NCBI GenBank assembly: GCA_964621445.1
Contig: CAZUNO010000003.1
Span: 124,664 to 188,663, forward strand
Direction: 5' to 3'
Length of the DNA: 64,000 bases
Origin: Candidatus Hadarchaeota archaeon
GTDB taxonomy: Archaea; CAYQAE01; CAYVLA01
Part shown: positions 18,019 through 55,800 of the stretch, in pieces
Layout: every line of letters begins with the position of its first letter
How positions within the stretch are numbered: position 1 is the first letter of the stretch
Program-made: the position numbers and the translations under genes
The notes under the pieces: model-generated
The model's database searches: none
What the model saw: only the letters and a program-made list of their open reading frames with translations
Told to the model about the DNA's origin: nothing

Positions 18019-18019
18019 T

Positions 18020-20793: not shown

Positions 20794-21464
20794 GATGTGA
20801 TGGTAGAGGATTCGCTATAAATATGAGTTCCATACGTTCGGCCGTTAACCAAAAGCTGATGAATTCGTTTTGGGTGGTGACCATTTACAATCCATGCCTC
20901 AAGTCCATGTTTCCTAAGAATAATCGGGAGATATTCGTCTACCAGGGATTGACGGTGACCGGAGAGGTCCTTTGCTGTGAGGGATTTGATGATCTCTTTG
21001 GATTTTTGATTCGTCAGCCCATCAACAGATTTTAATAGAAGCAATTTGGAGTTTAGGGTATTGGCTAAATAAGCGGAGATTGTATCGGAGGTCACTTCCC
21101 AGCTTTGGGGAAGATCTGATTCCTTGATAGGCGAGTAGGGAAGAAAAATGGGGATCGGTTTGCCGGGTTCCGGCTTTGGCTGCGTCGATAGGCTAAAGTA
21201 ATTCGGCCAGCTAGATTCAATACAATAAGCGTTGAGGTGCATGGCAAGGATTGCCAGCCAGTGAGAACCTCTATTCCCAATACTGTAGTTATGCCCCAGT
21301 TTTCTGATTAGATCTGCATAGGAGCCCCCACCCGCTACAGCCGCAATATCTTTTATCTTATGGACATTCCAAAGCTCGCCGACTATTTCTTCCAGTATCT
21401 CACTTGCGTCATTTATGAGACTTCCACCGATCTTCACGACCCACATTACTTGGCCATCCTCCAT
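20790..21464 (-). CDS. amino-acid-kinase-family small-molecule kinase (MfnE-like)
   Basis: 'VVKIGGSL' N-terminal kinase motif and 'AVAGGGS'; 4-bp overlap with mfnB-like suggests co-translation. Confidence 0.45.
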   Translation of the reverse strand: MEDGQVMWVVKIGGSLINDASEILEEIVGELWNVHKIKDIAAVAGGGSYADLIRKLGHNYSIGNRGSHWLAILAMHLNAYCIESSWPNYFSLSTQPKPEPGKPIPIFLPYSPIKESDLPQSWEVTSDTISAYLANTLNSKLLLLKSVDGLTNQKSKEIIKSLTAKDLSGHRQSLVDEYLPIILRKHGLEAWIVNGHHPKRIHQLLVNGRTYGTHIYSESSTITS

Positions 21465-22582: not shown

Positions 22583-23685
22583 ACACAGGTCAATACCTTG
22601 CTTTTTCCCTTCATATAGTAGGGACCCACAGGAAATGGTGGGGAAACTATCATCTTACTTTGAAACATCTTCTGGTGGATTGATTGGTCAAATGGGACGG
22701 TCCGGATTAAGGGTAGTATGGACCATTTTGAAAAGCCCTCAGTATCAACAGCGGTTTTCTCCCCGGTGATGATCGATGCCAATCCTTTCTGGATTATCTT
22801 TTCTATACCTATACATGATGTGGTCATCCTGGGATTTATCTCCATAAAATGAGCCTTGCCCTGACTATATACAAAGTCTAGGGTCATCAGGCCCTTAAGC
22901 TTGCTCTTTGTTACCATGGAGGAGATATCATCCCAAAGCCCACGAACGGGAAGGGGGAATGGGCTGGAACCACCCAGGTATTCAAGCTCTTGAGAAGCCT
23001 GGATGGCTTGGGTGTTAATTGCAAGAGGAATTACCTCGCTTTCCATGGCCATGAAGGTCGCACTGAGGTGGCGTCCCTGCTTGAATTCCTGAATAATGGC
23101 AGAATTCCACCCGGAGCTCCTTAATTTTGCAGCTGCGCGTCTGCAATCGCTATTGCTTCTAACTATGGTTGTGCCCTCGCATCCAGCCCCGTCAGGGGGT
23201 TTTATAACCAGGGGTAAACCCATTTTGGGGATTGCCCTGGATATTTCCTTGGTAGTAGATTCAGTGGTTAAGGTTCTGGGCACGGACAGGAAATTGCATT
23301 GCTGGTCGACTAATTCAAATGAAGAGGGCTTATTCGCCAACCGGGAAACCGTTCCCGAGGGGCAGCTCAACAATTCCGTTTCCTGCTCAATGGCACGAGT
23401 GAGCTCGAGGAGTTTTCCGCCTGATTCTGGAGCAATTATGAAAGCGGCGTCGAAGCTAGATGAAGTCTCTGGGAGCTCTTCCATTGGGTTTTCCCGGGGA
23501 AATACCAGATCATAGATCGGTAAAAAACCGGCCTCTCTCTTTAAACTCTTATTAACTGCGGCGGTAACCTCGTGACCATCCTTTTTGAAGGATTCACATA
23601 ACGTCCGGAGCATGCCGAACCCCTGTGGCAGAATGCTTCTCGGCCCGCCCTTGAGTGATGTCCATTCCGACAGGAGGAGCTTCAT
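22501..23685 (-). CDS. ATP-grasp ligase (MfnD-like, tentative)
   Basis: 394 aa; ATP-grasp core ('LPLVIKPPDGAGCEGTTIV', 'MEINPR'). Confidence 0.4.
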   Translation of the reverse strand: MKLLLSEWTSLKGGPRSILPQGFGMLRTLCESFKKDGHEVTAAVNKSLKREAGFLPIYDLVFPRENPMEELPETSSSFDAAFIIAPESGGKLLELTRAIEQETELLSCPSGTVSRLANKPSSFELVDQQCNFLSVPRTLTTESTTKEISRAIPKMGLPLVIKPPDGAGCEGTTIVRSNSDCRRAAAKLRSSGWNSAIIQEFKQGRHLSATFMAMESEVIPLAINTQAIQASQELEYLGGSSPFPLPVRGLWDDISSMVTKSKLKGLMTLDFVYSQGKAHFMEINPRMTTSCIGIEKIIQKGLASIITGEKTAVDTEGFSKWSILPLIRTVPFDQSIHQKMFQSKMIVSPPFPVGPYYMKGKSKVLTCVWAKDSMEIPQRFARVKKWLSERHIKC

Positions 23686-23734
23686 GGCTACGCATTTAAT
23701 AGCGGACTTCTTTTAAATCTGGTGAGCTGGGACC

Positions 23735-24448
23735 TTGAGAATCATTCCCGTTCTGGATATTCTTGATGGAAAAGTTGTAAGGGGTGTTGCTGGTAATCGG
23801 AAGAGGTACAAGCCGGTCACCAGTTCCATAACCGATTCAGTTCATCCGGTGCAGGTTGCCCGGGATCTCCTTGACATTCACACCTTCCGGGAAATCTACA
23901 TAGCCGACCTCGACGCTATCGAGGGCAGGCCCGACAACAGGGAGCTTGTGAAAGAAGTATCTGAATTGGGCTGCCAGGTTTACCTCGACTCCGGAATTAC
24001 GGGTCCGGGGGACATTGACCCGGATTACGAAATCAACCACCTGGTAGCTGGAACCGAGACCCTGGATTCATTGGAGGTCTTGGCAGAGATCTGTCAGATG
24101 CACCCGTCTGTAGTTTCCAGCTTGGATTACAAGGGAGATGACCTGCTTTGCCGAGAGGAAAGCCTGAAACATATGAAACCCCGAGAGCTCGTCGCCAGCG
24201 TATGCGCTGCAGGCGTTTCGGAGATCATCTACCTGGACCTGGCTCGGGTTGGAACCGGTTCCGGTGTAGTATGCGAGAGAGTTGAGATGGTCATAGAAGC
24301 GTCCGAGGTACCGGTGATCGTGGGAGGCGGGATTAGGAATGCATCCGATATTCGATCCCTTGATGAGGCTGGGGCGGATGGTGTTTTGGTTGCGAGCTGC
24401 GTTCACTCAGGTGAGTTGGATGAAGGGGACCTAGAGGGTTTGACCTGA
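23735..24448 (+). CDS. HisA/HisF-family TIM-barrel protein (paralog associated with cofactor clusters)
   Basis: 'RIIPVLDILDGKVVRGV' and C-terminal 'VIVGGGIRNASDI' phosphate-binding motifs of the HisA/HisF fold. Confidence 0.55.
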   Translation: MRIIPVLDILDGKVVRGVAGNRKRYKPVTSSITDSVHPVQVARDLLDIHTFREIYIADLDAIEGRPDNRELVKEVSELGCQVYLDSGITGPGDIDPDYEINHLVAGTETLDSLEVLAEICQMHPSVVSSLDYKGDDLLCREESLKHMKPRELVASVCAAGVSEIIYLDLARVGTGSGVVCERVEMVIEASEVPVIVGGGIRNASDIRSLDEAGADGVLVASCVHSGELDEGDLEGLT

Positions 24449-25425
24449 TGATATCTAAGGCTCTTTATGAACTCATTAGGGGCCTCTCTGCTGGACCCTA
24501 CCAGGATTCTGTGGTATGAGCGGTTTCCGGAGACCCTTTCCAATATACCTTTACATTGAACCATTTCGCCACTGCGTGCCTGCCCAACGTAGGTATGGGT
24601 ATAGGACACGATTTCCGATATCTCAAATCCCGAATATTCACATTTCTCAACCTTGTATATCGCCGGGTAATCATAGGCCCTATTAGCATCTCTCACCATG
24701 CATTCAGCTCGGGCCTGTTCAATCCTCTGGTATCTTAAGTCTCCGAAGGATCCGGAGATCTCATGGGGCTTCCGGCAGGAGAGCAGGTCAAACCTTACAT
24801 CGCCCAGCTTAGCCCGATTGAATTTTCTGGTCTCGTGCCAGACGAATTCCGCGAAGGAATAATCCCCATTTGCTTCAATACCTCTTTTGGAATAGATATC
24901 CTTCCAATCGGTTCTGCCCAGTGCTGCGATTCTGTCCTCGGTAATGGCTCTCTTTACCGAGTTAACTGTCTTGGAAAGGTTATCTAGCCCGTACACGACC
25001 AGGTCAACATCCGAGCTGGTATTCTGGGCGCCGATAAGGTAGGACCCGGTAATTCCCATGTCATCCAGCGACAGATTAGATTCGGAAATGATTATTGATA
25101 CGATATCCGATACTATAGGAGCCGTCCCCCGTTCAAGCAAGTCCTTTAAGGCAGGACCGGGCATGTAATGCCTCTTGATCGAGGATCTTGGAACGATCGT
25201 AAGTTTTCGGTCAAATTCCGGCCGAAAATGGACGTAGTTAGGGGCATGTTTTTGTAGATACAGGCGTGATTCCTCGCTCGATTCAAACTTATGAATATCC
25301 CCACACTCTCTTCTGTAACGAAGCTGGGATACAACGCCGGAAATTGGATGGTTGAATAGGAGAACGGAGAAAATCAGACCATCCTTGGTTTCAATGAAGT
25401 CCCTTACCCGGTACATGCGATTCAC
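24403..25425 (-). CDS. nucleotidyltransferase-domain protein (Pol-beta superfamily), function unknown
   Basis: 'GITGSYLIGAQNTSSDVDLVVYG' fits the G[GS]...D.D nucleotidyltransferase signature. Confidence 0.3.
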   Translation of the reverse strand: MNRMYRVRDFIETKDGLIFSVLLFNHPISGVVSQLRYRRECGDIHKFESSEESRLYLQKHAPNYVHFRPEFDRKLTIVPRSSIKRHYMPGPALKDLLERGTAPIVSDIVSIIISESNLSLDDMGITGSYLIGAQNTSSDVDLVVYGLDNLSKTVNSVKRAITEDRIAALGRTDWKDIYSKRGIEANGDYSFAEFVWHETRKFNRAKLGDVRFDLLSCRKPHEISGSFGDLRYQRIEQARAECMVRDANRAYDYPAIYKVEKCEYSGFEISEIVSYTHTYVGQARSGEMVQCKGILERVSGNRSYHRILVGSSREAPNEFIKSLRYHQVKPSRSPSSNSPE

Positions 25426-25479
25426 AAATATATCGCCGATGAGTAATATCTTTAGTTGGCCTAGTATTAGGATCAGACA

Positions 25480-26160
25480 GTGATTGCTGGAATTGTGCCC
25501 TGCAAGGGACTGAAAAATGGGAAAACTAGGCTTGATCTTCCACCTGAACTTGGGAGAGAAAAGAGGGAGCTAATAATATCAATGTTTGATCGGGTTCTAA
25601 AAGCGATGGTGGAAAGCAGGCTGGAGACGGTCTATGTAGTGAGCCCTGACGAAGGCATCCTTGAGCATGGTTCCGCTTTGGGAGCGCGGACAATTCTTGA
25701 ATACAATCCCTCGGGGGCCAATTCCGCTGTTGAGCTGGCTAATAAAAAAGCGATTAAAGACGGCTTTGAGGCAACGCTCGTTGCTTTTTCGGACATTCCT
25801 CTTATCTCGAAGCGGGACCTAAACGGAATACTGGACTTGATTATTGAGTCTAACAGATGCGTGGCCGCGCTCCGTTCAAGGAGGGGGGGAACGAACCTTC
25901 TATTGCGGAAACCTCCTTCGGCAATACCATCTCGATACGGGAAAAACAGTTTTATCAAGCATCGCGATGAGACAATGCAGAATAGAATTCCCTTCTTTGA
26001 GTATGTGAGCAACCCGGCGTCCCTCGATGTAGATACGATATCCGATTTGAGGCTCTTGTTTCGGGGTGAGAGGTCGGCAGGGAATGAGTTGGAAAAAGAA
26101 GAACAATTTCGAATCTCACAAAGGATCACGGAGGCATTAGATTGGCGAAGTCGAGAATAG
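25480..26160 (+). CDS. cofC: MobA-like nucleotidyltransferase, CofC-like (2-phospho-L-lactate guanylyltransferase family)
   Basis: N-terminal 'MIAGIVPCKGLKNGKTRL' and 'AFSDIPLI' resemble CofC/MobA-type guanylyltransferases. Confidence 0.4.
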   Translation: MIAGIVPCKGLKNGKTRLDLPPELGREKRELIISMFDRVLKAMVESRLETVYVVSPDEGILEHGSALGARTILEYNPSGANSAVELANKKAIKDGFEATLVAFSDIPLISKRDLNGILDLIIESNRCVAALRSRRGGTNLLLRKPPSAIPSRYGKNSFIKHRDETMQNRIPFFEYVSNPASLDVDTISDLRLLFRGERSAGNELEKEEQFRISQRITEALDWRSRE

Positions 26161-36292: not shown

Positions 36293-37561
36293 TTAATCTC
36301 GGGAAATTTCCTCTTCTAGACGGGTTGTACTGACTTCCTTGTAAAGCCTGCGTCGGACCATCACCGACCAGACGATGAATCCGCAACCCATGGCGGTGCC
36401 GGTCACCGCTAGCCATTCAATCACGTATACCCACATTAATGCCCGGTTCTTGAGCTCGACGGCGTCCTGTTCCACGTTCTTGATCATATTATCGGCTTCT
36501 CGGTAGGCGTCAAGGGTCCTTTCGATCTCCAGGTCCAGGTAGTATGGTGTGGCCTGGGCTATTACCGTGTTGATTTGGTCTATCTTCCGCTCAATTTTAT
36601 CCGTGTTGGCCCCGAAGGAGTCACAGAATTCAAGTAGGCCCAGCAGCAGGCTTTTTCGGGTAGCTACATCCTGCATCTGGGACCTGAGGGTGTGAACCAG
36701 GTCTATATCCTGCGGCACATCTCGGTGATCCAGGTATATCATCAGGTTGCTCCCGAAGTCAATATAGTAGGTCCAGAAGGGCTTTTTTCTACAGAAGAAA
36801 TAGATCTCACCGGTATAGGCGAATACCCTGGCCTGATTCTCCACCTCCCAGGTGACCATGGCCGGGTGATCCTTGAATTTGACGCTCTCGGCATGGGCAA
36901 GTTTCCGGGCTCCGGGCTTGAGCTTGACCAGGTTGTGGTGGAAATCGTTCATGAAGTAGGCTCTTTCTCTCTTCCAGGGCAGGCTGCTGATGAACTCGTG
37001 TTCCCTGTCATCTATGCGCAGCAGTATTCCATTTTGGGGGTATTGGACCCAGGTATCGATGACGTCCCTGGTAGGTAGCAGCTCCCCTATTTCGGTCTCT
37101 CCCCAGGCTGGCCTGCCGAAGGCTCCACCAAAGGTCTCCCAGCCGCCGAACATGACCAGCCCCATGCCGCTATCCCTCACCCCTCTGGCCAGCATCCTGA
37201 TGTAGGGCTCTACCGCGAACCGGTTGGCGTTGGAGATTACTATAACATCGAACCTCGATGCCAGATCCTTGTATGTCCTGGGCATGTATAGCCTGACAAA
37301 CCTGTATATCTCCGCGCCCTGACCGGCCTGGATGGGCCCTATCGCGCCCCAATCGCGCATAGTTGCCTGCACAAAGGAGATCGAGAACAGAGGGTCTGAT
37401 CTCATCTCCCAGAAGGGACGCGAGCGAGCCGTACAGCCCACGTAGAGAACCCCGATCCGTCCATCCTCTCTGCCCGTTACGGAAGGCGGGATGAAAAGAG
37501 CCATACATGCAAGAAGGACGAATAATGCTCGGCGGGGCAAGTATTCAGCCAAACACTCCAT
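36293..37561 (-). CDS. GATase1-like (type 1 glutamine-amidotransferase-like) domain protein with signal peptide and C-terminal TM anchor; paralog A
   Basis: Shares long conserved blocks with the ORFs at 56232 and 57580 ('GVLYVGC', 'RLYMPRT', 'DFGSNLMIYLD', 'AVELKNRALMWVYVIEWLAVTGTA'). Confidence 0.5.
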   Translation of the reverse strand: MECLAEYLPRRALFVLLACMALFIPPSVTGREDGRIGVLYVGCTARSRPFWEMRSDPLFSISFVQATMRDWGAIGPIQAGQGAEIYRFVRLYMPRTYKDLASRFDVIVISNANRFAVEPYIRMLARGVRDSGMGLVMFGGWETFGGAFGRPAWGETEIGELLPTRDVIDTWVQYPQNGILLRIDDREHEFISSLPWKRERAYFMNDFHHNLVKLKPGARKLAHAESVKFKDHPAMVTWEVENQARVFAYTGEIYFFCRKKPFWTYYIDFGSNLMIYLDHRDVPQDIDLVHTLRSQMQDVATRKSLLLGLLEFCDSFGANTDKIERKIDQINTVIAQATPYYLDLEIERTLDAYREADNMIKNVEQDAVELKNRALMWVYVIEWLAVTGTAMGCGFIVWSVMVRRRLYKEVSTTRLEEEISRD

Positions 37562-37644: not shown

Positions 37645-38355
37645 TCAAATATGACGGACAAGTCCTTGTATCTCCCATACAGTGTGCATTATTTCTCTAA
37701 ATGACACAGTTGACTTTCCCCTCCTCCTAGGGGAGTGGGAGACCGGTAGCTGGGTTATGCTGAATCCCTTCTTGATGGTTCGGGCCACGAGTTCCAGGTC
37801 AAATGCGAACCTATTGCTTGTAATTTCCACTTCTTCGGGAATCTTGCGGTCGAAGATCTTCATGGAACAGTCTATGTCCTTTAGACCCTCCAGGGCGAAT
37901 AGTATTCGGCATACCGTATTGTAGCCTTTCGATATACACCGGCGGTGAAATGGTTCATCATGGCGCTGTCTGTAGCCGACCACCATATCAAATTCTGGAA
38001 GCGGCTCCAGCATCCTTTGAAATTCCCCGATATCGAACTGCAGGTCGGCGTCAGTATATGCTATGTACTTAAAACGGGACGAGGAGATGCCGGTCATTAT
38101 GGCCGCTCCATATCCCTCGTTCCTGTCATGAATGGAAATCCTGACCTGAGGGAAATCCCTTGACGCCTCCCTCATCCTTTTTCCAGTACCATCGGTACTC
38201 CCGTCGTCAACCAGGATGATTTCGTATTGGGAAAGGCCAATGCTGGAAAGGGAGCGGTCGGCACTCCTCGCCGTGTCGTAGATCAGCTGCTGTTCATTAA
38301 ATGCGGGGATAACAAATGATAGCTTCACTCTGGATGCATCCAATGAAATCCCCAT
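37645..38355 (-). CDS. GT2-family glycosyltransferase, polyprenol/dolichol-phosphate sugar synthase type
   Basis: 'FVIPAFNE', 'ILVDDGSTDGT', 'YTDADLQFD' motifs. Confidence 0.8.
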   Translation of the reverse strand: MGISLDASRVKLSFVIPAFNEQQLIYDTARSADRSLSSIGLSQYEIILVDDGSTDGTGKRMREASRDFPQVRISIHDRNEGYGAAIMTGISSSRFKYIAYTDADLQFDIGEFQRMLEPLPEFDMVVGYRQRHDEPFHRRCISKGYNTVCRILFALEGLKDIDCSMKIFDRKIPEEVEITSNRFAFDLELVARTIKKGFSITQLPVSHSPRRRGKSTVSFREIMHTVWEIQGLVRHI

Positions 38356-38467
38356 TGGTTTTCCCTGGGATTTGTACTGGGTCTGAAATATGTTAATGAG
38401 GCAGCCGTCCTTGGTGGCAAGGCTTAATATGTGATACAGGATGCTGATTATTGATAGGCGGGATTGA

Positions 38468-38833
38468 ATGGTCTGGCTTTATATCTCGATGCCTGTCTTT
38501 CTGAACGGTCTTGGTCAGTTGATGCTCAAGAAGGGAGTGGATACCATGCTTTATGGGGAGATCGGATTCCCATCCCTAGAGAAGCTGATTCCGGATATAT
38601 TGAGCAGCCCTCTGGTTCTGGCCGGCCTGGCCTGTTCCGGTATCAGCATGTTGGTCTGGCTGAAGATTCTATCCATCTCCGAGGTGAGCTATGCCTATCC
38701 CATAACCGTTAGCCTGACCTACGCTCTGGTGGTGGCTGGTTCGGGCCTGGTTCTCGGTGAGGATGTGTCCATGATGAGGATGCTAGGGATAGTGGTAATC
38801 GTCACCGGAGTGTTCATCGCGGGGATGACCTAG
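38468..38833 (+). CDS. small 4-TM membrane protein (EamA/ArnE-GtrA-like, candidate lipid-linked sugar flippase subunit)
   Basis: 121 aa, hydrophobic; divergent from the GT2 gene and directly upstream of a large membrane protein. Confidence 0.45.
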   Translation: MVWLYISMPVFLNGLGQLMLKKGVDTMLYGEIGFPSLEKLIPDILSSPLVLAGLACSGISMLVWLKILSISEVSYAYPITVSLTYALVVAGSGLVLGEDVSMMRMLGIVVIVTGVFIAGMT

Positions 38834-38837
38834 GGCT

Positions 38838-40616
38838 TTGGGAAGGGGATCTGAATTGCGGTTTTCTGGACTTCAGGACAGCCTTTTAATCCTCCTGATA
38901 GTTACCGGAATTCTCCTTGCCTTTTCTTTGCAGGGCCTGGACCTGACGGATCTTGGCTGGCATCTGACAAACCAGATGTGCACGGTCAAATACTCGCCCA
39001 ATTTTGACTCCTTTGATTGGACTTTCCTGCTCTCAAACTACGCAGGGGGGATATGGCTTTCCTTGATTGGAGGGCCGTCTGTGTTATGGGCCAGGATTGG
39101 AGGCGCTCTTCTTGTCGGGGTCAATTCGGTTATCGTATATTCCATCCTCTCCAGGCATTTCGGGCGTATGGAGGTGCTTTTGACGGTACCGGTGACTGCT
39201 CTGTTCATTGCTGCTTGCTCCAGCCAGATATTGATACACTACTTCTCCTTCCCGGCCTTCCTGCTCTGCGTTGAGTTTTGGCTTTTGGACCGGGCCATGG
39301 ATGAGAGGTCAGGAACCAATAAGTTGCTAATCGGCATGGGAATGGGCGGGTTGCTAATTCCCATAATTCTTAGTTACCTTCCCATGGGCTTGCTGCTGGT
39401 ATTTCCTCTCATCGCGATCACCTACATCCGGCTCACGGATGCCTACCTTGAGCTTAGAAGGGTTTTTGTGGGAGCTTTGTTGGGGTTATCGATATCCCTG
39501 GTTTTAACCCTGGTGGTATTTCTCTCTGCAGGAATCCTAGAGGGCTTCTGGGATGCCGGTATCTCGTTGATTTCCGGTGGTAGAGCGGTCGCCGACCATG
39601 AGGCGGCTGACCTGATCCGGCTCTATGCCGCTGACCTCAGGAGGGTAATCTTGCGGACCTTTCTTTTAGGCTCCTTTCTCCTTGTTGTGTACAGGGCCAG
39701 GAAGCACGGTGGAAAAGCGCTTCAAGTAGCGGTAGGAATAGCCTTGGCCGGGTTTATTGGCGGCGTATTGTGGGCGTGGACCGAGGGATTAATCGCCATT
39801 GATCCCGGAAAGGAGCTAAGCAGAGTGGCCATGGGCTGGATATTCGTCGCCACCTGGATCGTGCTTTTCAGGGGGGATGGGCGGAAACCTAGACTGGATA
39901 TTCTGGTTCTGGCCGGGGTCCTGGCAATGATTGTGACCCCAGTGGGCTCAAATGGCGGCCTGGTCAAGGCGGTCTACGGAATGTGGTTGATTCTACCCCT
40001 ATCCCTGCTTAGAGTCAAGGATCTTCCCCCGCCCTCGTGTCCAGGACCCCTTCGATGGCTGCAAAAAAATTTCAAGCCCATCGTTATTGTTTTACTTGCT
40101 CTTTCTCTGCTGACGCTCTGGTTCACCGTTTATCGGGACCACTGGAACCGGTTGGATCTGACCACTGGTTTTTCGGAACCTTCCCTTGCGGGGATATATT
40201 CAACCCCGGAGAGAGTGGAGGCAGTGGAAGGGGTTTTGTCCTTCCTGGATAAAGAGACCCAGAAGGGGGACAGAACGCTTTTCGTAAACGTGGTCCCCCT
40301 GATATATTACCTAACGGAAACCAGGCCGGCACTAAATAACTCCTGGCTCTTTCTGGAAGAGCTGGAGAGGATAAAGACCAGACAGAGAAAGGTTAACAAG
40401 CTACCTACCATATTTGGTTACACCTCGAGTTTCCCGGACGATGAATGGCCCGACGAGAAGAAGGAGGGGGATTCAGGTAATATTTCGGAAAAGATAGAGT
40501 TCCTGGAGATTGTATATGTCAATGAACTGGGATACGAGCTAGCCTTCGAGTCCGACTCGTTCGTGATGTACTCCCGCCCCGGAGAAGATGCCAATGTTAA
40601 CCATCGAGAAACTTAA
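38838..40616 (+). CDS. large polytopic membrane protein, candidate GT-C-type glycosyltransferase
   Basis: 592 aa with many TM helices and a soluble C-terminal domain; gene context only. Confidence 0.35.
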   Translation: MGRGSELRFSGLQDSLLILLIVTGILLAFSLQGLDLTDLGWHLTNQMCTVKYSPNFDSFDWTFLLSNYAGGIWLSLIGGPSVLWARIGGALLVGVNSVIVYSILSRHFGRMEVLLTVPVTALFIAACSSQILIHYFSFPAFLLCVEFWLLDRAMDERSGTNKLLIGMGMGGLLIPIILSYLPMGLLLVFPLIAITYIRLTDAYLELRRVFVGALLGLSISLVLTLVVFLSAGILEGFWDAGISLISGGRAVADHEAADLIRLYAADLRRVILRTFLLGSFLLVVYRARKHGGKALQVAVGIALAGFIGGVLWAWTEGLIAIDPGKELSRVAMGWIFVATWIVLFRGDGRKPRLDILVLAGVLAMIVTPVGSNGGLVKAVYGMWLILPLSLLRVKDLPPPSCPGPLRWLQKNFKPIVIVLLALSLLTLWFTVYRDHWNRLDLTTGFSEPSLAGIYSTPERVEAVEGVLSFLDKETQKGDRTLFVNVVPLIYYLTETRPALNNSWLFLEELERIKTRQRKVNKLPTIFGYTSSFPDDEWPDEKKEGDSGNISEKIEFLEIVYVNELGYELAFESDSFVMYSRPGEDANVNHRET

Positions 40617-40658: not shown

Positions 40659-43581
40659 TTGAAGCTGGCCTTGCCTTGGCATTTTGGATGGGCGATGGCC
40701 GGTTTGGTCTCCTTGACCATGGTGGTCCTGGTGTCTTCGGCCCAATGTTCAGGAGGAGGTTTGCCAGAATTGGAACTATACGTTTCCAAACAGGGGGATG
40801 ACTCTTGGTCGGGCTCCCTTCCCGAGCCCAATGCGGAGGGAAATGATGGCCCCTTGGCAACCCTTGGACGGGCCCAGGCCGCGGTTCGGGAGGCCCGGGC
40901 CCAGGAGGACCGTCCGGTAAAGGTCATCATACGGGGTGGCACCTATCAGCTTACAAAGGCACTCACCTTCACCCCGGAAGATGGGGGCTCGGAAGATTCT
41001 CCGGTAACGTATGAAGCATACCCGGGGGAGGAGCCAATATTCTCAGGTGGCAGCGAGATCGGAGGTTGGGAGAAGGGAAATGGCTCCGTATGGAGGACAC
41101 GGGTACCTGAAGTTGAGAGCGGGGACTGGTATTTTCACCAGCTTTTTGTGCAAGGAAACCGCGAAACTCGGGCAAGGACGCCAAATAAGGGCTACCTCAA
41201 TATCGCCGATACCCTGAAACCACTTCTGGATCGGGATAAGGCACTTCGAGAGAGAGGATACAAGATAGGTTTTCAGTACAGGGACCAGGACATAGAACAC
41301 TGGGAGGGCATCGAGGACGTTAACATCTTTCTTTACCATTCCTGGACCTGTTCGGTACACTGGATAGATAGTCTAAACCAGGAAAACCGGACCGTACGTT
41401 TCACAAATCCTTCCTCGAAACCGGTGGGTTACTGGGACCCGGAGCAGCGCTATCACCTGGAGAACTATCTGGAGGCCCTTGACGCTCCCGGCGAGTGGTA
41501 CCTGGATCGTAAGACCGGTGTCCTGCACTACTGGCCTCCTGATGGCAGGGACCCCAACGACTTGGAGATCGTGGCTCCCCGACTCCGCCACCTGGTCAGG
41601 ATTCAGGGAGATCTATCCCAGGGTCGGACAGTGGACCACCTGGTGTTCCGCGGTCTTTCATTCCAACATGCTGACTGGGAGCTGGACAGGGAGAGACGGG
41701 CCGACGGCCAGGCAGCTACCTTCCTCTCTGCAGCGGTTGTGGCTACCGGTGCCCGTAACTGCCTCTTCGAGGATTGTGAGATCTCCCATGTGGGCGAGTA
41801 CGGTTTAATCCTGGGAGAGGGCTGCAAGCTCAACAAGGTGGTCAAGTGTGAGTTCCATGACCTGGGAGGCGGCGGGATTCGTATGGGGACTACCGGACTT
41901 CCCCAGGACCCGGAGAGGCAGACCGATCACAACACCGTCGATAACTGCTTCATCCATTCAGGGGGTCACGTGTTCAGGGCGGGAATAGGTGTTTGGATAG
42001 GCAAGAGCAGCTATAATAACGTGACCCATAATGAGATCTGCGATTTCTATTACTCTGGATGCTCGGTTGGCTGGAGCTGGGGGTATGACCCGACCTCGGC
42101 CCACCACAATATCCTGGAGTACAATCACATCCACCATCTTGGCAAGGGCGTTCTCAGCGATATGGGCGGAATATATACTCTGGGGATATCCCCCGGGACC
42201 AGGGAGAGATTCAACCTCATCCATGACATCTATTCCTATACCTATGGTGGCTGGGGGCTGTATACCGATGAGGGCAGCTCCAATATTACACTGGAGGGAA
42301 ATATCGTGTACAACACCAAGAGCGGGAGCTTCCACCAGCACTATGGTTGTTGTAATCAACTGCGTAACAATATTCTCGGTCCCGCCCTCGACTCCACCAT
42401 CCGGCGTTCCCGGCAGGAGGACCACATATCCTTTACCATGGAGAAAAACATCATCGTCAGCAGGGAGGGCAAGGTTCTGGGGGGATTCATGGGATAATCG
42501 GAAATATCGTATGGATTACAACCTGTACTGGGATGTATATGGAATTCTAGGAGAGGACATGGATTTTGGAGGCATCGGCTTCGAGGAGTGGCAGGAACCG
42601 GGAAGGGATTACCACTCCCTGGTGGCTGACCCCATGTTCGTTGATCCAGGAAACCACGACTACAGGTTGAATGAGCAATCCCCGGCCCTGACCATGGGTT
42701 TTGAGCCCATTGATGTCGAAAAGATCGGTCTTTACAGCGAGGAGAGTTGGGTTCAGGCCCCCGAGGCCGTTTCCAGGGAGCCCGTATTCGGGTTCTCTCC
42801 TCCCTTGCTCAGGGAGGGTCCCGTCTCCCACCCAGAAAACCTTTCGAAAAGTGACATGTGGATCATCAAGTACGATCCTGAAAAGGGAAGGGGTACGATT
42901 CCTCGGGACACCGAGGAATGCGCCCTGGTCTGGACCATAGACGGGGGGAGGTACCCGTCCACCACGCCTCCGGGAAGCCAGGAGGTTAACGGGAGCTGCG
43001 AGAGCCCGATGAAGAGGGGCCTGGACGGTAGGTGGTACCTTATAATACCCGAACAGAAGCTTGGGGCCATATCCCTGAGCTTCAGGGATGGAGTCAGAGG
43101 GGAGAACTGGGACGATAACCGGGGAGAGAGGTGGTGGATCACATCCAGCGATTACGTTCACAGCTTACTAGTAGAATTCGACCGGGTTATAGCCAATGGA
43201 TCCAAATACGGGGCAGACATGTCCTCGTTTGAGGGCGCGGCCTCGGAAGCCTGGGAGGACTATAGATCCGGTGAATACGGGAAGGCCATGAATCACCTGA
43301 GCGGCGAGGTTAACCGGGCCTGGATCCGGTACACGGACCGGTTGCTCGAATTCACAGCTAGTGAGCTGGAGTCAATTCGCTCCACCGGGGTAAACCTGGG
43401 CAGGGAGGAACGCCTCCTGTACCTGGCGGAGCTGATGAAGGGACAGGGAAAGTTCGGTGTTGCCGAGGGTTACTGCAAGAATGTTCTCTCGGAACTCTTG
43501 GAGATAAGGGATATGATACCTGAGGGTGCATTATTCTTGGCATTCATAACCCTACTTGTGGCCCGGAGGTTGATCAATTGA
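40659..43581 (+). CDS. secreted right-handed beta-helix protein, about 975 aa, interrupted by a frameshift at a G6 run (42479-42484); pseudogene or homopolymer error
   Basis: Track ORFs 40659-42497 and 42031-43581 overlap in different frames; removing one G joins '...EGKVLG' to 'DSWDNRKYRMDYNLYWDVYG...'. Signal peptide present; the first 150 aa of the second ORF look like off-frame translation. Confidence 0.5.
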
Positions 43582-46874: not shown

Positions 46875-49800
46875 CTAAGCCTTTTCGTTAGTTCTTCCGA
46901 CTCTTATGATCGTTCTTTGGAGGGCCCAACCTGAACCCAGGAGAAGCAGCAGCACGGCGGCGGGTTCCGGCACCGGGGTCCACACTACGGGCTCGGTGGA
47001 TACTCCATCATGAGAAACGTACATTACGATCGATGATATATCGGATAGAAGGAACGAGCAGGTTTCTCCCAGTTCGATGAGTCCCCCGGGAGATAGGGTC
47101 TCAAACCCTTTGGCCTCCCGCCAGACCGTGTTGCCCGATTTGTCCCGGGCTATGAACACCCCGCTGCCGGATAATTCGGTCCGCCCGGTATTTTGAACGG
47201 TAATGGACATGCCTGAAATATTTCCGTTCCCCGTCTCAACTTCATGTTCCGTTAGCTCGCAGGATGGAAGGCCCACCTGGAGGTCCGCGGTTCTTCGATC
47301 AAACACCTGACCCTCCAAATTCTTTATTTCAGCCTCAACGTAGTAATGCCCGGGCTCGACCTGGGGGTGCCAGGTTAGGCCGCAGGATGCAGGTCCCTTA
47401 AGGTTACTGAGTGTCTGGAGAAGAAGACCTTCTACTAGATCCCCGTTTTCGATTCGTCTGATGCAGATATCGGTAACCAGGTCCAGGGCGTATCCGGAGT
47501 TCTGGATAGAGATCTCCACGTCCACGCTCTCCCCAATATCGTATTGGGCCCTGTCCGTATCCAGAGTTATTATTGAGACATCCGATTGGGTATAATCGAC
47601 CTCGAATGTGAAGGTGGACCAGACCATGGATTCCCCGGTTGAGGGGTCGTACTGGAAGGGAAACACCTGCAGGACCAGTTCGCTAGCTCCGTCCGGTTTC
47701 TCGATCTCTGTCCATCGATAGTCCGACCCAGGATACCATCCCCCTTCAGCCAAAGTGGAATCGCTGCCAATCCCGCCTCTGAAGTCATTCGTCGTCAGGG
47801 GTAGATGGAGACCGGACTGTCTAGTAAGTCCGGTTTTTTCGGTGAGCTCGACGCTCTGTACCTTTGTTCGGACCGGGCAGGAGAAGGACTGGACGTAATA
47901 TGGTATCTGGGGCCTGTCCCTTTCCATATAAGTCCAACCGCCGGGGATATCAACATGATCGAAGCCCTCAAGCTCGGTAACCGTGTATTGAGGAACGGTC
48001 ACAACCAGTTCGGGTGAGAGGGTCTCCCCGCCTTCCCTGGAATTTGAGGAAAGGGAGGGGACGGCACCGAACTTCGGGTCCCCGTATATATTGTACTCCC
48101 AGGCGAAGAGATTGCCGTATTTGTCAGTCCCGTACCTGTTCCGCTCGGTTTCGAGGAAGGCCTTGCCGATGGATTCTGTTGTGTCCCAGTTGTTGAAGAT
48201 GTGGTTACCCGCCTTGGAATCCTGTTTCATGGGGGCGAGCTGGGTTGAACCAATATACACGACTGCTCCTGAGTTCAGGAAACCTTCGGCTATATTGTAA
48301 TCATCACCTGATTCGTAGTTCCCGGTCAGGCAGGATAGGGCGATGACCGCGGGCGATGCTTGCCCGAAATCCAGGGGGAAATCGTTAGGGTTGCTCCACG
48401 AGGAGGAGCTGGTTTTAAGTCCACACTGGATATCGTCCCATTCATCCAGGTTTCCGTGACCTCTGAAGCAGATCAAATCCTGGTCAAGGATGCTTTGTTT
48501 GAAGGCGGATGCCTTCTGGTCGTGGGTGGAGTACCACTTTAAATGAAGTTCGGAGGCGGTAAGTCCCTTGCCCTTCAGTACCTTGACCAAGTTCGTGACA
48601 TCATTGACGAAGGTCCCCTGTTTGTATCCGGTTCCACTCACCAGCAGGGCGTGGGATCGATCGTAGCTAGACCCTCCCTGGCCGAGGTGGACGTATATGC
48701 TGTGATTTATGGTGGCCGTAAGCTCCTCCAGGGTGTTCCCGATTACCCTGCCAACTATGAGATCCGGTACGCCGTTACCGGTGGTGTCGGAGTAGGGATG
48801 GTCGCTCAGCGGGACATCCTTGGTATTTGGGGCGTTGTTCCATTCTATATCGAAGCCGTATTGGTGCCATGACGGTACCAGTTCGGTCTCACCGACGATG
48901 AGCAGGTAGCCATGCCCCAGTTTTGAGAAGGAGGGGCTGAGCTTCTTGTTCCAGGCCCCCTGGGAACCGATGACCTTGTCAAAAGCGGAGGCGCTGTTGG
49001 TGTCCAGGTATCCCAAAGTTCCATGTTTCAACATGGCCAGTCTTGCCATGGTGCTGAGAAGGTTCTGCGCGTCCTGCTTGTTATAGTAGTAAATTGCCCT
49101 GAAGGGGTTGGTCACAATCAGGTAATTGGAGGCCTCAAGAGCCTTATCATAGGCGGCTTGTAAGGTCTGCCCCCCTGTGGTATACTTTACCGAGCTCCAG
49201 GTTGAGCTGTGCTCGCTTCCCTTTAGTGACTCGTACCATAATTTGAGCTTGCCGATCTCTGGGGTCGGTTGATTGCTCTGTAGCATGACGGGGACGGCCT
49301 TGTAGGTGAAGGTTCGAGATTTCCCAACGTCTATATCATCCTCAACAAGGATTAGGCAGTACCACCACTTTGCCGACGGATTGTATTCGGCGAGGATGTC
49401 GGCGGTTGAGCTGTTGCTGGAGATGGGCTGGAGCAGCCTAAGGTAATCCTGGAGGATGATCCCTGTTGCGTTGCCCTTGCCGACGTTCTTCACGGTTATC
49501 TTCATGGTGAAAACGTTCTGGTTTCTGGTTAGCTCCCTTGAGGTAACCACCAGCTTTGGCTCCATCTTTGGCGTGGCAGGGAGCAGTATGTCCAAAGTAT
49601 CCAATCCCATCTTTAGGTCGACATCGTATGCCATGATCCCGATGCGGTATTCCTTTCCCTTGGGCACCGGTTTTATGTACCATTTGAACTCTATGTTTGC
49701 CGTTTTTGGGTTGGAGGGGAACCCCTCAGTCTGGATGAGATTCCCGTCGACATACACCTGGGCGGTGCTCAGCCCATTTTGATCTGAGATATCTGCCCAA

Positions 49801-52800
49801 ACCGTAAGGTATTCCTCGGAGCGAGTCCATGAGCAAATTGAAACATAGGGGGCGGTGGGATCTGGTGTGTTCTTGGCCCGGACCTTGGCGGAGTCCTCTG
49901 CTGCTTTCCCGTATCCATCGTAAGCCTTCGCGGTTATGGTGTAATTACCATCGAGGAATCTAGGGGTGTCAAAGGGCCAGCGATAGGGTGGAGAGTAGTC
50001 GGTGAAAGTCTGGACGCCGTCTACGTAGAACTCCACCTTCTCCACGCCCACGTTGTCCGTGGCCTCGGCGAGGACCGTTTTGGTTCCATTCAAGGTACCC
50101 TCGAGTGGGAGAAGTTCTATTAAGGGTTCCTCGTTATCTGGGATGGGAAGAGTTGAGAAAAGCCCTGCCTCCGAGGCGGTATTTCCATCCACATCCATGG
50201 ATATGGCCAGGAAATGGTAGGTGGTAGAGGGTTCAAGACCGGTAAGGTTTATGGAATGGATCTTGTTATTTCCCCTGTGGGATTCCGAGTAACCATAAAT
50301 CCTGGAGACGGTATCGTATCTCACGGTGCCGTTGGCCGATTCATCGGTGACCCACTCCACTATGGCCCAGTTCGTTTCACATTTCACCGAGGGACCGCTT
50401 GTGAACCTTGGTGGGGTATTTGAATCCCCGATAGGTACAAAGGTGGCCTTGAGAGAATAGTTACCATATACCGTAAAGGTGGTGTCGGGGGACTCGACGT
50501 TTTCCACGGTGTCGACATCGCCGGTCCATAAAGAGAACTCGTGGTCCTGTGAGGGAGAGGCCGACAGGGAAACGTTTTCCCCGCTATCGAAGGTTAAGTT
50601 CCCGGTGCCAGGTGAGGAAACGGTGCCGTTGGGACATGTTTCTATCTGAACCACGTGCCGGGCTTCCTTGGTTGCACAGAAACCGTAAGTTTCGCCGGGA
50701 GAAACCCTTACGCCGGCCATCGCAGCCTTGGTCTGGGTGAAGAGGTACCCCTCATACTTCTCGAGGATCCCCACCAGGATGCCTCCGGAGAAATCGATGT
50801 ATAGCTCGATCTTGTGGTCCGGGCCCCAGGATTGGGGCATGGGATGGGATGGAGTCCTGACATACCCCCATGCGTTGAAGCTTTCCCCATCGGGGGTCGT
50901 GTATCTACCTTCCACGTTGGGACCGGTTGAATATGATGCCGTGCTGGGCCAGAGTTCCAGGGTGCCTTGTACCCCGTTTACGGTAAAGTCATAGGTTCCC
51001 AGGAAATCAGAAAGAACGATGGTTCCCGGAGCCCCCGTTTCATATGAGATCTCCTGGTTCTTGAGCGCATAGAATCCGTAGGGGGTTCCATGCCACCAGG
51101 TCTTGCCGGCCATGCCGTCCAGGGTCTGGGTGAAGAGATAGGCCTCGAAGACCTGGTCGTCTCCGGCGGAGGGGGTGTCCTGGAAATCGAGCTTGAACTG
51201 GAACTGGAACTTGTGGTCTGGTCCCCAGGAAGGTGAAAGCCTGTATTTCCAGGTGTTCATCCTTCCCTGCACGTCATGGGTTTTTCCATCGGAGGCCGTG
51301 TAGTTGCCCTTGATGTTGGGAGTGCCCTCTATCGCGTCGCCATTTGCCTCCCATAGATCTAGATTTCCGAGCCATCCATCGTGGACCATGCTCCAGTTCC
51401 CGATGGCGTCCTTCCTCTGGGTTGGGGATATCCCGCCTATGCGCAGGGAGGGGTCCCCGAAAAGCTGGAACTTCTGCGCGTGGTGGTAGTAGGCCTGCGA
51501 TCTCCAAGTTGAGGTCCACAGAGGGTTGATGCCGAAATCCTCCTGTATGTACTCATAGAGCGCTCGATTCCATATATCACCCATGATGGCCGGTTTGCTG
51601 GAGTAGGTATATGCCTCGAAGAAGTGCCTATCGAGGGTTAATCCCGCCGGCTGTGAGCCCGTGTAGCAGCCTATGTAGCCTATGGCCCCCACATCTCGTT
51701 TCACAAGGAAGAACTCGGCCAGGGAATCCGAGTCGTAGTTTCTGGTTGCGTTCCTCTGGATGGCCGCGGGAACGGGGGGATCGACTGCGTTGGGGTTCTT
51801 GGGCCAGCATCGGCTGTCGTTCCATCCACAGCAGGGAGGACACTCGACGGAGGGGTCGAATTCCTTTCCATTCACGTCAAGATGCTTGCCTTGGTAGTGG
51901 AAGTGTGCGGTGCTGCATGCCGCGGCAAACACCACTGGCAGCCGGTCCGCGTTGTCTAGCTTTACCGGGAAGGAGACGTACACATCGCCGCGCTGGGTTC
52001 CGTTTCTTTCGTCTCCCACGAAATTTACGATGCCCGAGGTGTTTCCCCACCTGAAATTTCCGGTAAGTGGGGTTTCATTACCCGCGCAGAAATTCGTGGT
52101 CCAGGTGCGGGCGGGCTGGAACTTAGACCCTGAGGATAGAGACACCCAGACCTTTCCGGCTTCTTTTCTGGTGAAGGCTATGATATCGTCACTGCCATCG
52201 CCGTTGAAGTCACCGACCCCTGGCTCCTGGGACGGGTAGCAGAAGTTGCCGTGCCATAGGTCTGGAGACCCGAATTTGGTGCCGGTGGAGAGGGCAACGT
52301 GAACGTTGGCCGCTGACCGCTTGAAGGTGATGATGTCGTCCTTTCCGTCGCCGTCGAAGTCGCCTATCATGGGGATCTCGCTCCCCCAGGAGAAGCTCCC
52401 GTGCCAGAGCTTCCCTGGTAGGAAGGAGGTTCCGTTGGAGAGAGATACGTACACGTCGTTGGCGGCTGAACCCGACTTGGTGCCCTTGATGAAGGTGATG
52501 ATGTCGTCCTTCCCGTCGCCGTTGAAGTCCCCGACCTCCGGCCACTCTCCCGGGAGGCAGAAGTAGTTCTGCCATTTCTGCTGGGTTCCGAAGCTCGAGC
52601 CCGTGGAGAGGGCCACGTGGACCTCGGATACATTTCTGTGGAAGCAGGCTATGTCGTCCTTCCCGTCGCCGTTGAAGTCCCCGACTCTTGGTATCTCGCC
52701 CCCCGGACAGAGGTTCCCGTGCCAGATTTGACCGGGACCGAAGTTGGACCCGGTCGAGATTGCGACGTATACATCACCCTGGGCGGAGCCCTTACCCGAG

Positions 52801-55800
52801 TCCCTAAGGAAACAGGCGATATCATCCCTACCATCCCCGCTGAAATCACCGATAACTGGTAGCTCCTGGCCCAGACAGAAGTACTCGTGCCACTTCTCGG
52901 CCGAGCGGAAGTGGAGCTTCATTCCATCCGAGGTGTATACGTGGGCCCAGAGATCGGTGTTACCGTGACCTCCGAAGCTGACGAAACCGGCTCCCTTGTT
53001 CAGTTCATCGTTTATGCTTTCCCGGTCCGGGTTACCGTCGGATAAACCGGCGGGAAGGTCGGCAATCCTTTGGTCATAGAGCCTCACTGGAGTCATACCA
53101 GCTGAAGAGAGGTTGGAGGATACGTGTTCCATCGTCTTCCAGGCATCTGCGTAGTCATTGTATGCATTCTCCCCTTCCTTGTATCCGGGAACGACCATCA
53201 GTGCCCTTTGGAACCAGCTCGAGTCGTAAGAGGAGAACTCGTATGATATGATCTTTTCCACGTAGGTTTTGACCTCGCTGGCCGTTGATGCCGGTATCCT
53301 GCCAACCGCTATGTCCGGAATTAGGTCGGCGTCATCGAGGTTTATGGTGCTGATTGGGTCACCGGACTGCCAGGGTATCCCGTCCATCTCCCCGAACAGG
53401 AGGTCGCCGTCCCCATCCCAGTCCTCGAAGCTGCCGTCCTGTTCATAGAGGTCTGCGTAGTAGAGATCGGACGGGGCGAAGTTGTTACCCCAGTGGGTGG
53501 GGTCATGTATCTTGCAATACCTGACCGGGAACCGGTCGCAGTCTCCCACCAGCATCAGATATTTGATACCGCAGGCATCCTCGTAGGCCGCGGCTCCCAT
53601 CTTTATCCTCTCCTGGATGTCCACCCCGCTTGACGCGAAGCTTCTATTGAGGGTTTGCCAGCTCTGGATGTAGCTCTCCATATCGGTGTGGTCCTTATGT
53701 TTCTTGAGGGGGATAAGCTCCTCGACGAAGTCCTGGTCGGTCAGCATGAGTAGTTCGATATCCCGCGTGGAGAGGTTAATCTCGGTCAGGGTGGAGAAGT
53801 CTCCGGTGAAGTTTGGGGGGATGGACTTGGAGAGCGGTGGATTATCTGATCCCAGACGTACGCCCACTCTAACCTTCTGGCCCGGTTTGCTTTCCAGCTC
53901 TGGAAGGCTGAAGGCCAGCTCCCACACCCTGTGGTTGTATCTCGAGTGAATAGAAGGTCCAAAACCCGCGCCGGCCGTGGAGTGGCACGCCTGGAGTGGT
54001 GTCCATGACTCCTCGCCTAGGTAGTACTGCAGCTGCATTCCCTGGAAAACCGAGGCCCGGTAGTTGGTGTCCAGGTTGGGTGATATCTCGCCATCGCCAT
54101 CGATGTCAAAGGTGATCCACGCAAGGTCCGATGGATCTCCTTCGGTGTCCGCCGGGATATCCAAAAGCATGTACATGCAGGAGGCATCGTTCTGGACACC
54201 AAGGTAGCCCGCCCCAAGGTCTAGGAAAGCGGAGCGGTTCCACTCACCGGCATCAATCTGGCCGTCAATTACCGGTGGCAGGTACGAGAAGGGGCTTTGA
54301 ACCATAAGGGGTTCAGGGACCACCATGTTGATGTGGCAGGTGGCGGGGCCTGCGTTGGACTCGAATTGAATGGTGTGCCCGTATTGCCCTGGGGAGAGGG
54401 CGGACCGGGAAACGGTGATGTTGATTTCGGTTTCATGGCCTGCCGGTACATAACCGGTCATTGGATTAGCGCTGAGCCAGCTGGGCAGATCCGAGACCAT
54501 GTCCCAATCGAGGGCTGCGGAGCCCGGGTTCTGGATGTAGACCGACCCCTTGGTAAGACTCGTACCGAGGTTCAGGACCTGCGGCTCCAGCACAATCTGA
54601 GGATCTCCCTCCGGGACATCCATGGCTACTCCAACCTCGGACTCCCCTCCATTGGAAACCAGGTGAATGATGCAAGCATAGGTACCGGGTGACAACCCAC
54701 TCCTGTCCACCGACGCGGTAACCAATTCGTGGGTTCCCGATCCGAGTTCTCCATCCGTCTTCGAGAGCTCAAGCCACTCGGCGATTTCTCCCTCTGTCTC
54801 CCAGACAAGGGACCCGGAGCCGGCATTGCTCACGTTGAAGAAGGCCGATTGGTCCTCGAGCCCGAGATCAAGTGAAGCGGGGGAGACCTGAAGTACCGGG
54901 CCCTGGCTGAAGGAAGCGTTGATGCTTTGATTTCCCAGAATGGTGATGGTTGTGGACGCTGAGTCGGGGTTGGCCATGGTTCCTGTGCCCCCGGACCAGC
55001 CGGCGAAGTTCCAGCCGGGATCAGCAACGGCCTCCAGAGGTACCTCGAAATCCAGGGGGTATTCGAAGGTTCCCTCACCGGGATCAGCCACGTAGCCGCC
55101 CTCTCCGCTCGATATGGTGAGGAAATAAGACTGCGGTTCGGAATCCGGGACCTCCATATTTACCTCCACCTGGCCCTTTCCTCCATTGGAGATGATGAGC
55201 ATGGTGTGTTGATAGGTTCCCGGGTTAAGTCCCGCTCGATCAACCGCCGCCATGTAGGGCAAGGTCTCGCCCACCCCGGCCGCTCCGCTGGATGGGAAGC
55301 TTAGCCAGGACGGCAGGTCCTGCTCCAGCTGCCAGCTAAGTGGCCCGTTCCCTGAGTTTCCGATATTGACGTAGAGCTCGGTGGTAACCGTGCCGAAATC
55401 CAGGTTCTGTGGCTGCAAGGTGAGCACCGGCAGTCCCTGGAAGGTGCCGGTGATGGCATGGTAGCCGTTAATCGTTATGGTGGTGCTGCTCGAATCGGGG
55501 TCGGCCATGGTTCCGGTGTCCCCGTCCCAACCGGTGAATACGTATCCGGATTGGGCTGATGCCACAAGCGAAACCACCTCCCCATAGTCCCGGTTAAAGT
55601 TGCCCTCTCCCGGGGTGGTTACCGATCCTCCCGAGGTGCTGCCGATGGTTAGACCGGGAACGGTCATGGTGACCGTCACAGTGCCGTCGCCTCCGTTTGT
55701 GGTTACCGAGATGTCGTGGTTGTAGTTCGCCGGCCCCATGCTGGTCCGGGTGACCGTGGCCTTGATAGATGCCCATTCGTCCGGGGTTATGGGGTCTCCC

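Follow-up and report, generated by a model that had tools for sequence, protein, structure and literature searches.

The question raised by this locus is whether three adjacent genes in a 64,000-nucleotide stretch of contig CAZUNO010000003.1 (referred to here, at its full length, as the window) encode a system that builds a lipid-linked sugar, carries it across the membrane and transfers it to an acceptor on the outer face. A preliminary description had read them in this way, as a glycosyltransferase family 2 (GT2) synthase, a small flippase-like protein of 121 residues with four transmembrane (TM) segments and a large membrane protein resembling the glycosyltransferase-C (GT-C) class, and had proposed a nearby giant surface protein, or a surface polymer, as the acceptor. 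The three-part reading is borne out by homology and structure searches, and the genes probably form an archaeal three-component (multi-component transmembrane) glycosylation module, with a probability of roughly 0.75; the proposal of the giant protein as acceptor is not borne out (vide infra).

The coordinates and lengths of the three open reading frames (ORFs) agree with the ORF list (Table 1), and the conserved relatives of all three mark them as genuine genes and not as chance ORFs. The GT2 gene is transcribed away from the other two across a spacer of 112 bp, and the small and large genes follow each other at a distance of 4-22 nt. A database protein identical to the large protein (P0001) has 586 residues, which places its start at the TTG at 38856, and this form is used for residue numbering. 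Read by eye, the divergent spacer has A+T-rich boxes of the TTAATAT and AACATATTT types some 35-40 nt before each start codon. A scan for bacterial promoters and terminators, including sigma-70 promoters, returned background levels, and such models do not apply to an archaeal host. Hydropathy analysis gives no TM segments in the GT2 protein, four in the small protein, as had been described, and at least 10 in the large one.

The large protein belongs to a sizeable family that occurs in archaea and bacteria. A word-indexed search detected 14 relatives, one of them labelled Methanocella, and an exhaustive profile search detected 2,110 cluster representatives at E ≤1e-3, including 662 at E ≤1e-30; identities to relatives are 28-44% over more than 90% of the length. 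The window protein has no Pfam or NCBIfam match, including no match to PMT or PMT_2 (the latter followed to E 10). Among 80 diverse family members, 20 match PMT_2 (PF13231; best E 5e-9), and the closest relative, P0002, reaches E 0.15. As judged from these matches, the family borders PMT_2, and the window protein itself is not a recognised member. Sequence searches of the PDB returned nothing from the single sequence or from a 14-sequence profile, and the matches of an 80-sequence profile, two designed proteins only, were discarded as spurious.

Structure is more informative. An AlphaFold2 model built from the 14-sequence alignment is confident, with a predicted local distance difference test (pLDDT) value of 81.5 and a predicted template modelling (pTM) value of 0.86. 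In a Foldseek comparison with the PDB, the top 22 matches are all GT-C enzymes (E down to 2.4e-6), among them STT3, ArnT, DPY19, AftA, AglB, Pmt4, ALG9/12 and Emb. The GT-C fold is supported by two independent structure searches and is cleanly separated from other folds; in the second of these, the best and longest matches are ArnT, with 409 aligned residues, and STT3B, with 429, both of them catalytic enzymes. Classification as a transporter, which would have been at odds with the preliminary description, was not obtained, as MFS and MurJ folds appear only at Foldseek probabilities below 0.3 with TM-scores of about 0.1, which is noise. A second candidate assignment, as a paralogue of the oligosaccharyltransferases, was also rejected: STT3, AglB and PglB are among the fold matches, but the resemblance is at the level of fold only, there is no STT3 Pfam match, and no WWDxG motif was seen on reading the translated sequence. 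The model thus makes the large protein most likely a polytopic glycosyltransferase of GT-C fold from an unnamed family, in agreement with what had been proposed.

Directly after TM1, the large protein carries a strongly preserved motif (Table 1). Across 80 diverse members, G34 is invariant, and Q26, G27, D29 and D32 are conserved in 76, 78, 78 and 79 sequences, respectively. The model places TM1 at residues 2-24, loop helices at 32-45 and 55-69 and TM2 at 76-98, with D29 and D32 between TM1 and the first loop helix, which is the usual arrangement of the N-terminal GT-C module. Escherichia coli ArnT and the large protein share a G65-x-W67 element, and in ArnT D31-E32 precedes it by 35 residues, the same spacing as in the large protein. 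An acidic residue after TM1 is catalytic in the ArnT, PMT and STT3 structures, and by analogy D29 and D32 are a candidate catalytic acidic pair in the first extracytoplasmic loop. Features specific to the family are the C-terminal alpha/beta domain and the motifs QGxDxTDxG and YRDxxNR.

The GT2 protein matches Pfam PF00535 (Glycos_transf_2) with E 1.6e-25, and the NCBIfam models that fit it best all describe synthases of polyprenyl-phosphate sugars, namely ArnC (1.6e-21), PgfS (3e-20) and PpgS (3.6e-17), with scores far under the equivalog cut-offs (for ArnC, 76.6 bits against 529). AglJ and Dol-P-hexose (dolichyl phosphate-hexose) transferase models are matched at 2.7e-13 and 1.9e-10, again far under the cut-offs. 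A BLASTP comparison with E. coli ArnC (taken from NC_000913) gives 29% identity over 221 residues (E 1e-24) and ends at ArnC residue 224, before the ArnC TM segments, which begin near residues 233 and 265. The best relatives of solved structure are ArnC (2e-21), the Pyrococcus furiosus Dol-P-mannose synthase (4.5e-16) and GtrB (3e-8), with homology spanning the whole catalytic domain and the interface helices. The hydropathy profile of the GT2 protein contains no hydrophobic segment, and the C-terminal TM pair of ArnC and GtrB is absent. Among the 120 closest relatives listed, 32 carry a C-terminal GtrA fusion (PF04138), and several of these are annotated as bifunctional GT2/GtrA proteins or as dolichol-phosphate mannosyltransferases; such fusions connect the TM-less subfamily with lipid-linked sugars that have to be flipped. 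On the strength of this homology, the protein is a predicted GT-A-fold polyprenyl-phosphate sugar synthase of the ArnC/Dol-P-mannose synthase/GtrB kind, and its earlier designation as a lipid-linked-sugar synthase agrees with the NCBIfam, BLASTP and PDB matches.

The small protein is most similar to ArnF and ArnE, with NCBIfam matches at 6.1e-12 (46 bits, cut-off 99) and 5.6e-8 (33 bits, cut-off 92), respectively, and it matches Pfam EamA at 7.8e-6 (26.7 bits, cut-off 28.2). In BLASTP comparisons it shares 32% identity with E. coli ArnE over 62 residues (E 5e-6) and has no match to E. coli ArnF. No match to GtrA (PF04138) was found even at E 10, so of the two models offered previously the Arn-like one stands and the GtrA-like one falls. 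A simple loop count gives four lysine and arginine residues in loops 1 and 3 and one elsewhere; the corresponding counts are 7 and 0 in E. coli ArnE and 1 and 5 in ArnF, so the bias runs in the same direction as that of ArnE and opposite to that of ArnF. No second small subunit was detected in the 64-kb window (hidden Markov model (HMM) and phmmer searches of all ORFs of at least 60 residues) or at L004, the locus of the closest relative. With a single small gene, the partner is therefore encoded elsewhere or the protein forms a homodimer. The matches suggest an ArnE/ArnF-like (DMT/SMR-type) protein and a candidate subunit of a lipid-linked sugar flippase. A homologue search with the small protein gave two matches and one new locus, L020, which is uninformative: its neighbours are asparagine synthase and carbamoyltransferase genes, and no GT-C gene lies within its 5 kb.

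A faint similarity to TMEM234 (PF10639), a eukaryotic family of 4-TM proteins without an assigned function, was also observed among the ArnF-like small proteins, at E 7e-4 for a gene at 8224-8640 (reverse strand) of locus L011 and at E 0.04 for that of the window.

Linkage between the components was examined at 15 distinct loci that hold relatives of the GT-C protein, found in searches that included a genome scan with the 14-sequence alignment and covering Methanomicrobiaceae, Methanocella, Smithellaceae, Syntrophaceae, other deltaproteobacteria, Chlamydiae, Victivallales and metagenomes. A GT2 gene of the ArnC/PgfS type or of the window type lies within 6 kb of the GT-C relative at 9 of the 15 loci, which by a rough estimate is far above chance, given the few such GT2 genes per genome. 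The closest relative (L004/L005; 44% identity in the GT-C protein) has the same divergent trio, with a TM-less GT2 protein and one small gene, and the arrangement persists although the proteins are no more than 44-46% identical. In the Methanomicrobiaceae metagenome-assembled genome of L011, the GT-C gene is followed by two ArnE/F-like genes, with opposite charge biases like those of ArnE and ArnF, and by a full-length ArnC-like GT2 with two TM helices. Two of the nine loci (L006 and L022) resemble arn operons, in that genes for an NTP-transferase, a dehydratase/epimerase and a DegT aminotransferase are present. At L018 the only GT2 gene nearby is TuaG-like, and other related loci adjoin Wzx-type flippases or tandem paralogues.

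Such tandem arrangements, of two to four large polytopic membrane-protein genes, are found at three bacterial loci (L018, 1195-9046; L017, 4894-8671; L024, 2096-5725), with homology to the GT-C family confirmed for the pairs in L017 and L024. By analogy with the serotype-specific Gtr enzymes, the duplications suggest diversified acceptor or linkage specificity. In one genome (L001/L002, 7563-10945), the GT-C homologue lies between two fragments of a UDP-GlcNAc 2-epimerase (Epimerase_2) in a transposase-rich region, and it looks as if it was inserted into, or recombined with, the epimerase gene.

If the three proteins act together, the TM-less GT2 enzyme would load polyprenyl phosphate, which in an archaeon is presumably dolichyl phosphate, with a single sugar taken from a nucleotide sugar at the cytoplasmic face. 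The ArnE/ArnF-like protein, as a dimer, would then carry the lipid-linked sugar to the outer leaflet, where the GT-C enzyme would take it as donor, with D29 and D32 in the first external loop acting at the membrane surface, and would place the sugar on an extracytoplasmic acceptor. The activities of the enzymes, the role of the small protein as flippase, the identity of the lipid carrier and the direction in which the pathway runs are all proposals of this scheme.

Several observations weigh against it. All three activities are deduced from homology or fold. The sequence link between the large protein and ArnT or PMT_2 is weak, without a PMT_2 match even at E 10, and an hhalign comparison of the family profile with E. 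coli ArnT gives a probability of 38%, over residues 54-200 only, so that sequence alone leaves the ArnT link unproven. The GT2 gene is transcribed divergently, and co-regulation is assumed. ArnC and GtrB have a pair of C-terminal TM helices that is missing from the GT2 protein, whose access to the membrane is thus left without explanation, and the small protein scores under the curated cut-offs of EamA, ArnE and ArnF. The one-sided charge bias of the small protein suggests a fixed orientation, and there is a single copy, whereas E. coli ArnE and ArnF and the L011 pair are oppositely biased, as expected for an antiparallel heterodimer. Finally, 6 of the 15 loci, including that of Methanocella, have no polyprenyl-phosphate glycosyltransferase (PP-GT)-type GT2 within 6 kb.

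The small protein is the component whose role is least certain. Some of these observations fit a scheme in which it serves to anchor or activate the TM-less GT2 enzyme at the membrane, or is an unrelated DMT/SMR-type exporter, with flipping carried out by something else and the rest of the pathway unchanged. A GT2 protein with no TM helix needs a route to the membrane, and DPM3, the membrane partner of DPM1, provides a parallel. The scores under the ArnE, ArnF and EamA cut-offs point the same way, as does the lone small gene, whose product has a one-sided charge bias that sits uneasily with an antiparallel dimer of the SMR type. Pairs of a cytoplasmic GT-A enzyme and a small membrane partner have been described, with GacJ partnering the cytoplasmic GT-A enzyme GacI (PMC8035078), and the flippase activity of comparable ArnE/F-type proteins lacks direct demonstration (PMC11127046). 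However, the best family matches of the small protein are ArnF and ArnE and include no GacJ-type family, and ArnE/F-like genes recur where an anchor would be needless, both at L011, where the GT2 protein has TM helices of its own, and at L017, where no GT2 was detected within 6 kb. The frequent GtrA fusions of TM-less GT2 relatives likewise pair this type of enzyme with a flippase rather than an anchor, and the anchoring or exporter role is considered unlikely.

It is less likely still that the three genes are mere neighbours, with the GT-C enzyme drawing its donor from elsewhere (a dolichyl diphosphate-oligosaccharide or the product of another synthase) and the GT2 enzyme serving another route, such as N-glycan assembly. 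The placement of the GT2 gene on the other strand and the six loci at which a PP-GT-type GT2 gene is missing nearby would be explained, and the GT-C class does include users of diphosphate-linked donors, with STT3, AglB and PglB among the fold matches. Against this, the identical divergent arrangement persists at L004/L005 despite low protein identity, the GT2 linkage at 9 of the 15 loci is far above the inferred chance level, and neither the STT3 Pfam match nor the WWDxG motif was seen in the large protein. The least credible of the alternatives, and a very improbable one, is that the large protein is GT-C-like in fold without being a glycosyltransferase, either as a scaffold like PIG-U/GAB1 or as a transporter. 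The best and longest structural matches (ArnT and STT3B) are to catalytic enzymes, D29 and D32 are nearly invariant (78 and 79 of 80 members) at the catalytic position, the MFS and MurJ folds remain at noise level, and the genomic neighbours belong to glycan biosynthesis. The three-component module is therefore the preferred reading.

Comparison with known systems places the module close to, and outside, several described pathways. The Arn pathway of Gram-negative bacteria (ArnC, ArnE/ArnF and ArnT), which adds aminoarabinose to lipid A, differs from it in several respects. Lipid A is absent from the archaeal host, in which dolichyl phosphate presumably takes the place of undecaprenyl phosphate as carrier. 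The window GT2 protein is without the two TM helices of ArnC, one small subunit takes the place of the oppositely oriented ArnE and ArnF pair, and the GT-C protein falls short of the PMT_2 and ArnT models by sequence. No ArnA/B/D-type sugar-nucleotide genes adjoin the module in the window, and the equivalog cut-offs of ArnC, ArnE and ArnF are missed by a wide margin. By these comparisons, the module lies outside the Arn pathway proper. The protein O-mannosyltransferases and other PMT_2 GT-C enzymes (GT39/GT83-like) are also distinct, in that the window protein has neither a PMT or PMT_2 match nor a MIR domain, and it carries the family-specific C-terminal domain and motifs noted above.

An archaeal precedent exists in Haloferax volcanii, in which AglD, AglR and AglS (a Dol-P-mannose synthase, a flippase candidate and a Dol-P-Man mannosyltransferase) complete the S-layer N-glycan. 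The Dol-P-hexose synthesised within the cell crosses the membrane, and a polytopic transferase then adds it to a protein-bound glycan at the outer face. The likeness is one of scheme, and AglR is a Wzx-like multi-TM protein, unlike the 4-TM ArnE/F-like protein of the window. The GT2 protein also differs from the Dol-P-hexose systems in falling far under the AglJ and Dol-P-hexose transferase equivalog cut-offs.

The organisation, with synthase, candidate flippase and GT-C enzyme encoded together, is like that of GtrB-GtrA-Gtr* of Shigella phages and of CsbB-GtcA-YfhO, GtlA-GtcA-GtlB and GacI/J-GacK-GacL of Gram-positive bacteria. The three-component scheme and the interchangeability of its component families have already been described, as have the low mutual sequence similarity of the GT-C members, their acidic motif in an outer loop and, with GacI, a cytoplasmic TM-less variant of the GT-A enzyme (PMC8035078; PMC11127046). 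The flippase candidate of the window is ArnE/F-like, however, and neither GtrA nor Wzx, no GacJ-like partner was identified here, and the acceptors of those systems (O-antigen, teichoic acids and rhamnan) do not exist in archaea.

No new mechanism is revealed by the module, since its architecture is already well described; it is built here around an uncurated GT-C family. If the three-component reading is correct, a fold can be assigned to this family of about 2,100 cluster representatives, together with a likely catalytic motif and a likely type of donor, and three-component extracytoplasmic glycosylation extends to methanogen-related archaea, with an ArnE/F-type flippase candidate. The set of a TM-less synthase, one small membrane protein and one GT-C enzyme would also be a compact system in which to study translocation of Dol-P-sugars. 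Of most interest is the possibility that one ArnE/F-like protein on its own could flip Dol-P-sugars in an archaeal cell. A stronger version, in which the large protein represents a new GT-C family at the CAZy level (about 2,100 clusters at 50% identity, from methanogen-related archaea and several bacterial phyla) and its donor is delivered by a homodimeric Dol-P-monosaccharide flippase of the ArnE/F-like type encoded by a single gene, is put forward tentatively, with the odds well against it. The protein that carries out the crossing step for Dol-P-sugars in eukaryotes is, to our knowledge, still unidentified, and the homodimeric flippase, if real, would offer a simple and genetically linked archaeal handle on that step.

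Table 1. Features of the module and its surroundings, in window coordinates.
Feature	Position	Strand	Details
GT2 gene	37645-38355	-	236 aa, ATG start
Divergent intergenic spacer, presumed promoter region	38356-38467		112 bp, sequence read
Small 4-TM protein gene	38468-38833	+	121 aa, ATG start
Large GT-C-fold protein gene, unnamed family	38856-40616	+	586 aa; 592 aa from TTG 38838
Motif QGLDLTDLGWHLTNQ	38931-38975	+	Residues 26-40 of the large protein, directly after TM1; candidate catalytic pair D29/D32
C-terminal soluble alpha/beta domain	40125-40613	+	Residues 424-586 of the large protein, starting with conserved YRD(D)xNR; presumed outward-facing
Beta-helix/GH141-like gene	40659-42497	+	Signal-peptide-like N-terminus
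ORF overlapping the beta-helix gene in another frame	42031-43581	+	Hydrophobic C-terminal anchor at its end
Giant protein gene	46875-56012	-	3045 aa

As acceptor, a surface glycan, either an N-glycan on surface glycoproteins or an exopolysaccharide, is the best guess, because relatives lie in polysaccharide or nucleotide-sugar clusters and because the window locus and that of the closest relative both carry a secreted, glycan-active-looking enzyme beside it. In the window this is a right-handed beta-helix/GH141-like gene that follows the GT-C gene in the same orientation after 43 nt (Table 1), and at L004 a gene for a GHL6/GHL10-like protein flanks the GT2 gene; these predicted neighbours hint at a glycan context. 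The beta-helix gene and the ORF that overlaps it appear to be a single protein of about 975 residues (40659-43581), split by a one-base frameshift at a run of six G residues (42479-42484). The frameshift may have arisen in sequencing, may mark a pseudogene or may be genuine.

The giant protein encoded further downstream contains a gingipain-like Peptidase_C25 domain together with BACON_2, Flg_new_2, FG-GAP, Big_7 and CARDB-like repeats. Adjacency had been the reason to propose it as the acceptor. However, its gene lies on the opposite strand and ends 6.3 kb from the GT-C gene, with four genes between them (beta-helix/GH141-like, a 189-residue ORF, asparagine synthase-like and rubrerythrin), and no giant surface protein gene was found beside GT-C relatives at the related loci examined. 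The positional argument was rejected for these reasons, which leaves the giant protein as one of many possible targets; a surface polymer, the alternative named in the preliminary description, is possible as well.

As a protein in its own right, a protease-bearing surface giant is unusual for an archaeon. The only recurring link between its gene and the module is a set of three paralogous, membrane-anchored GATase1_like (PF07090) proteins, encoded at 36293-37561 (reverse strand), 56232-57461 and 57580-58815 (both forward strand), with 53% identity in the one pair compared. One copy lies directly downstream of the GT2 gene and two are divergent from the giant gene. At L004, copies are likewise found around the homologous module (1-1107, 11745-12944 and 13868-15109).

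The window also encodes archaeosine RaSEA, above its cut-off, and a set of cofactor genes at 14172-26160 and 7608-8582, comprising DHPS-like and beta-RFAP synthase (both methanopterin), MfnB/E/F/D-like (methanofuran), CofC (F420) and His_biosynth-like genes. Together, RaSEA and the methanofuran, methanopterin and F420 genes point to an archaeal host with a methanogen-like metabolism, for which dolichyl phosphate is the presumed lipid carrier.

A further feature of the window is a stretch at 16000-20000 with a low GC content (0.40-0.43, compared with about 0.52 elsewhere) and a strong GC skew at 18-20 kb. This stretch, which may be acquired DNA, includes genes for a STAND/AAA ATPase with a winged-helix C-terminus (16918-18018) and a RimK-like ATP-grasp protein (18564-19493).

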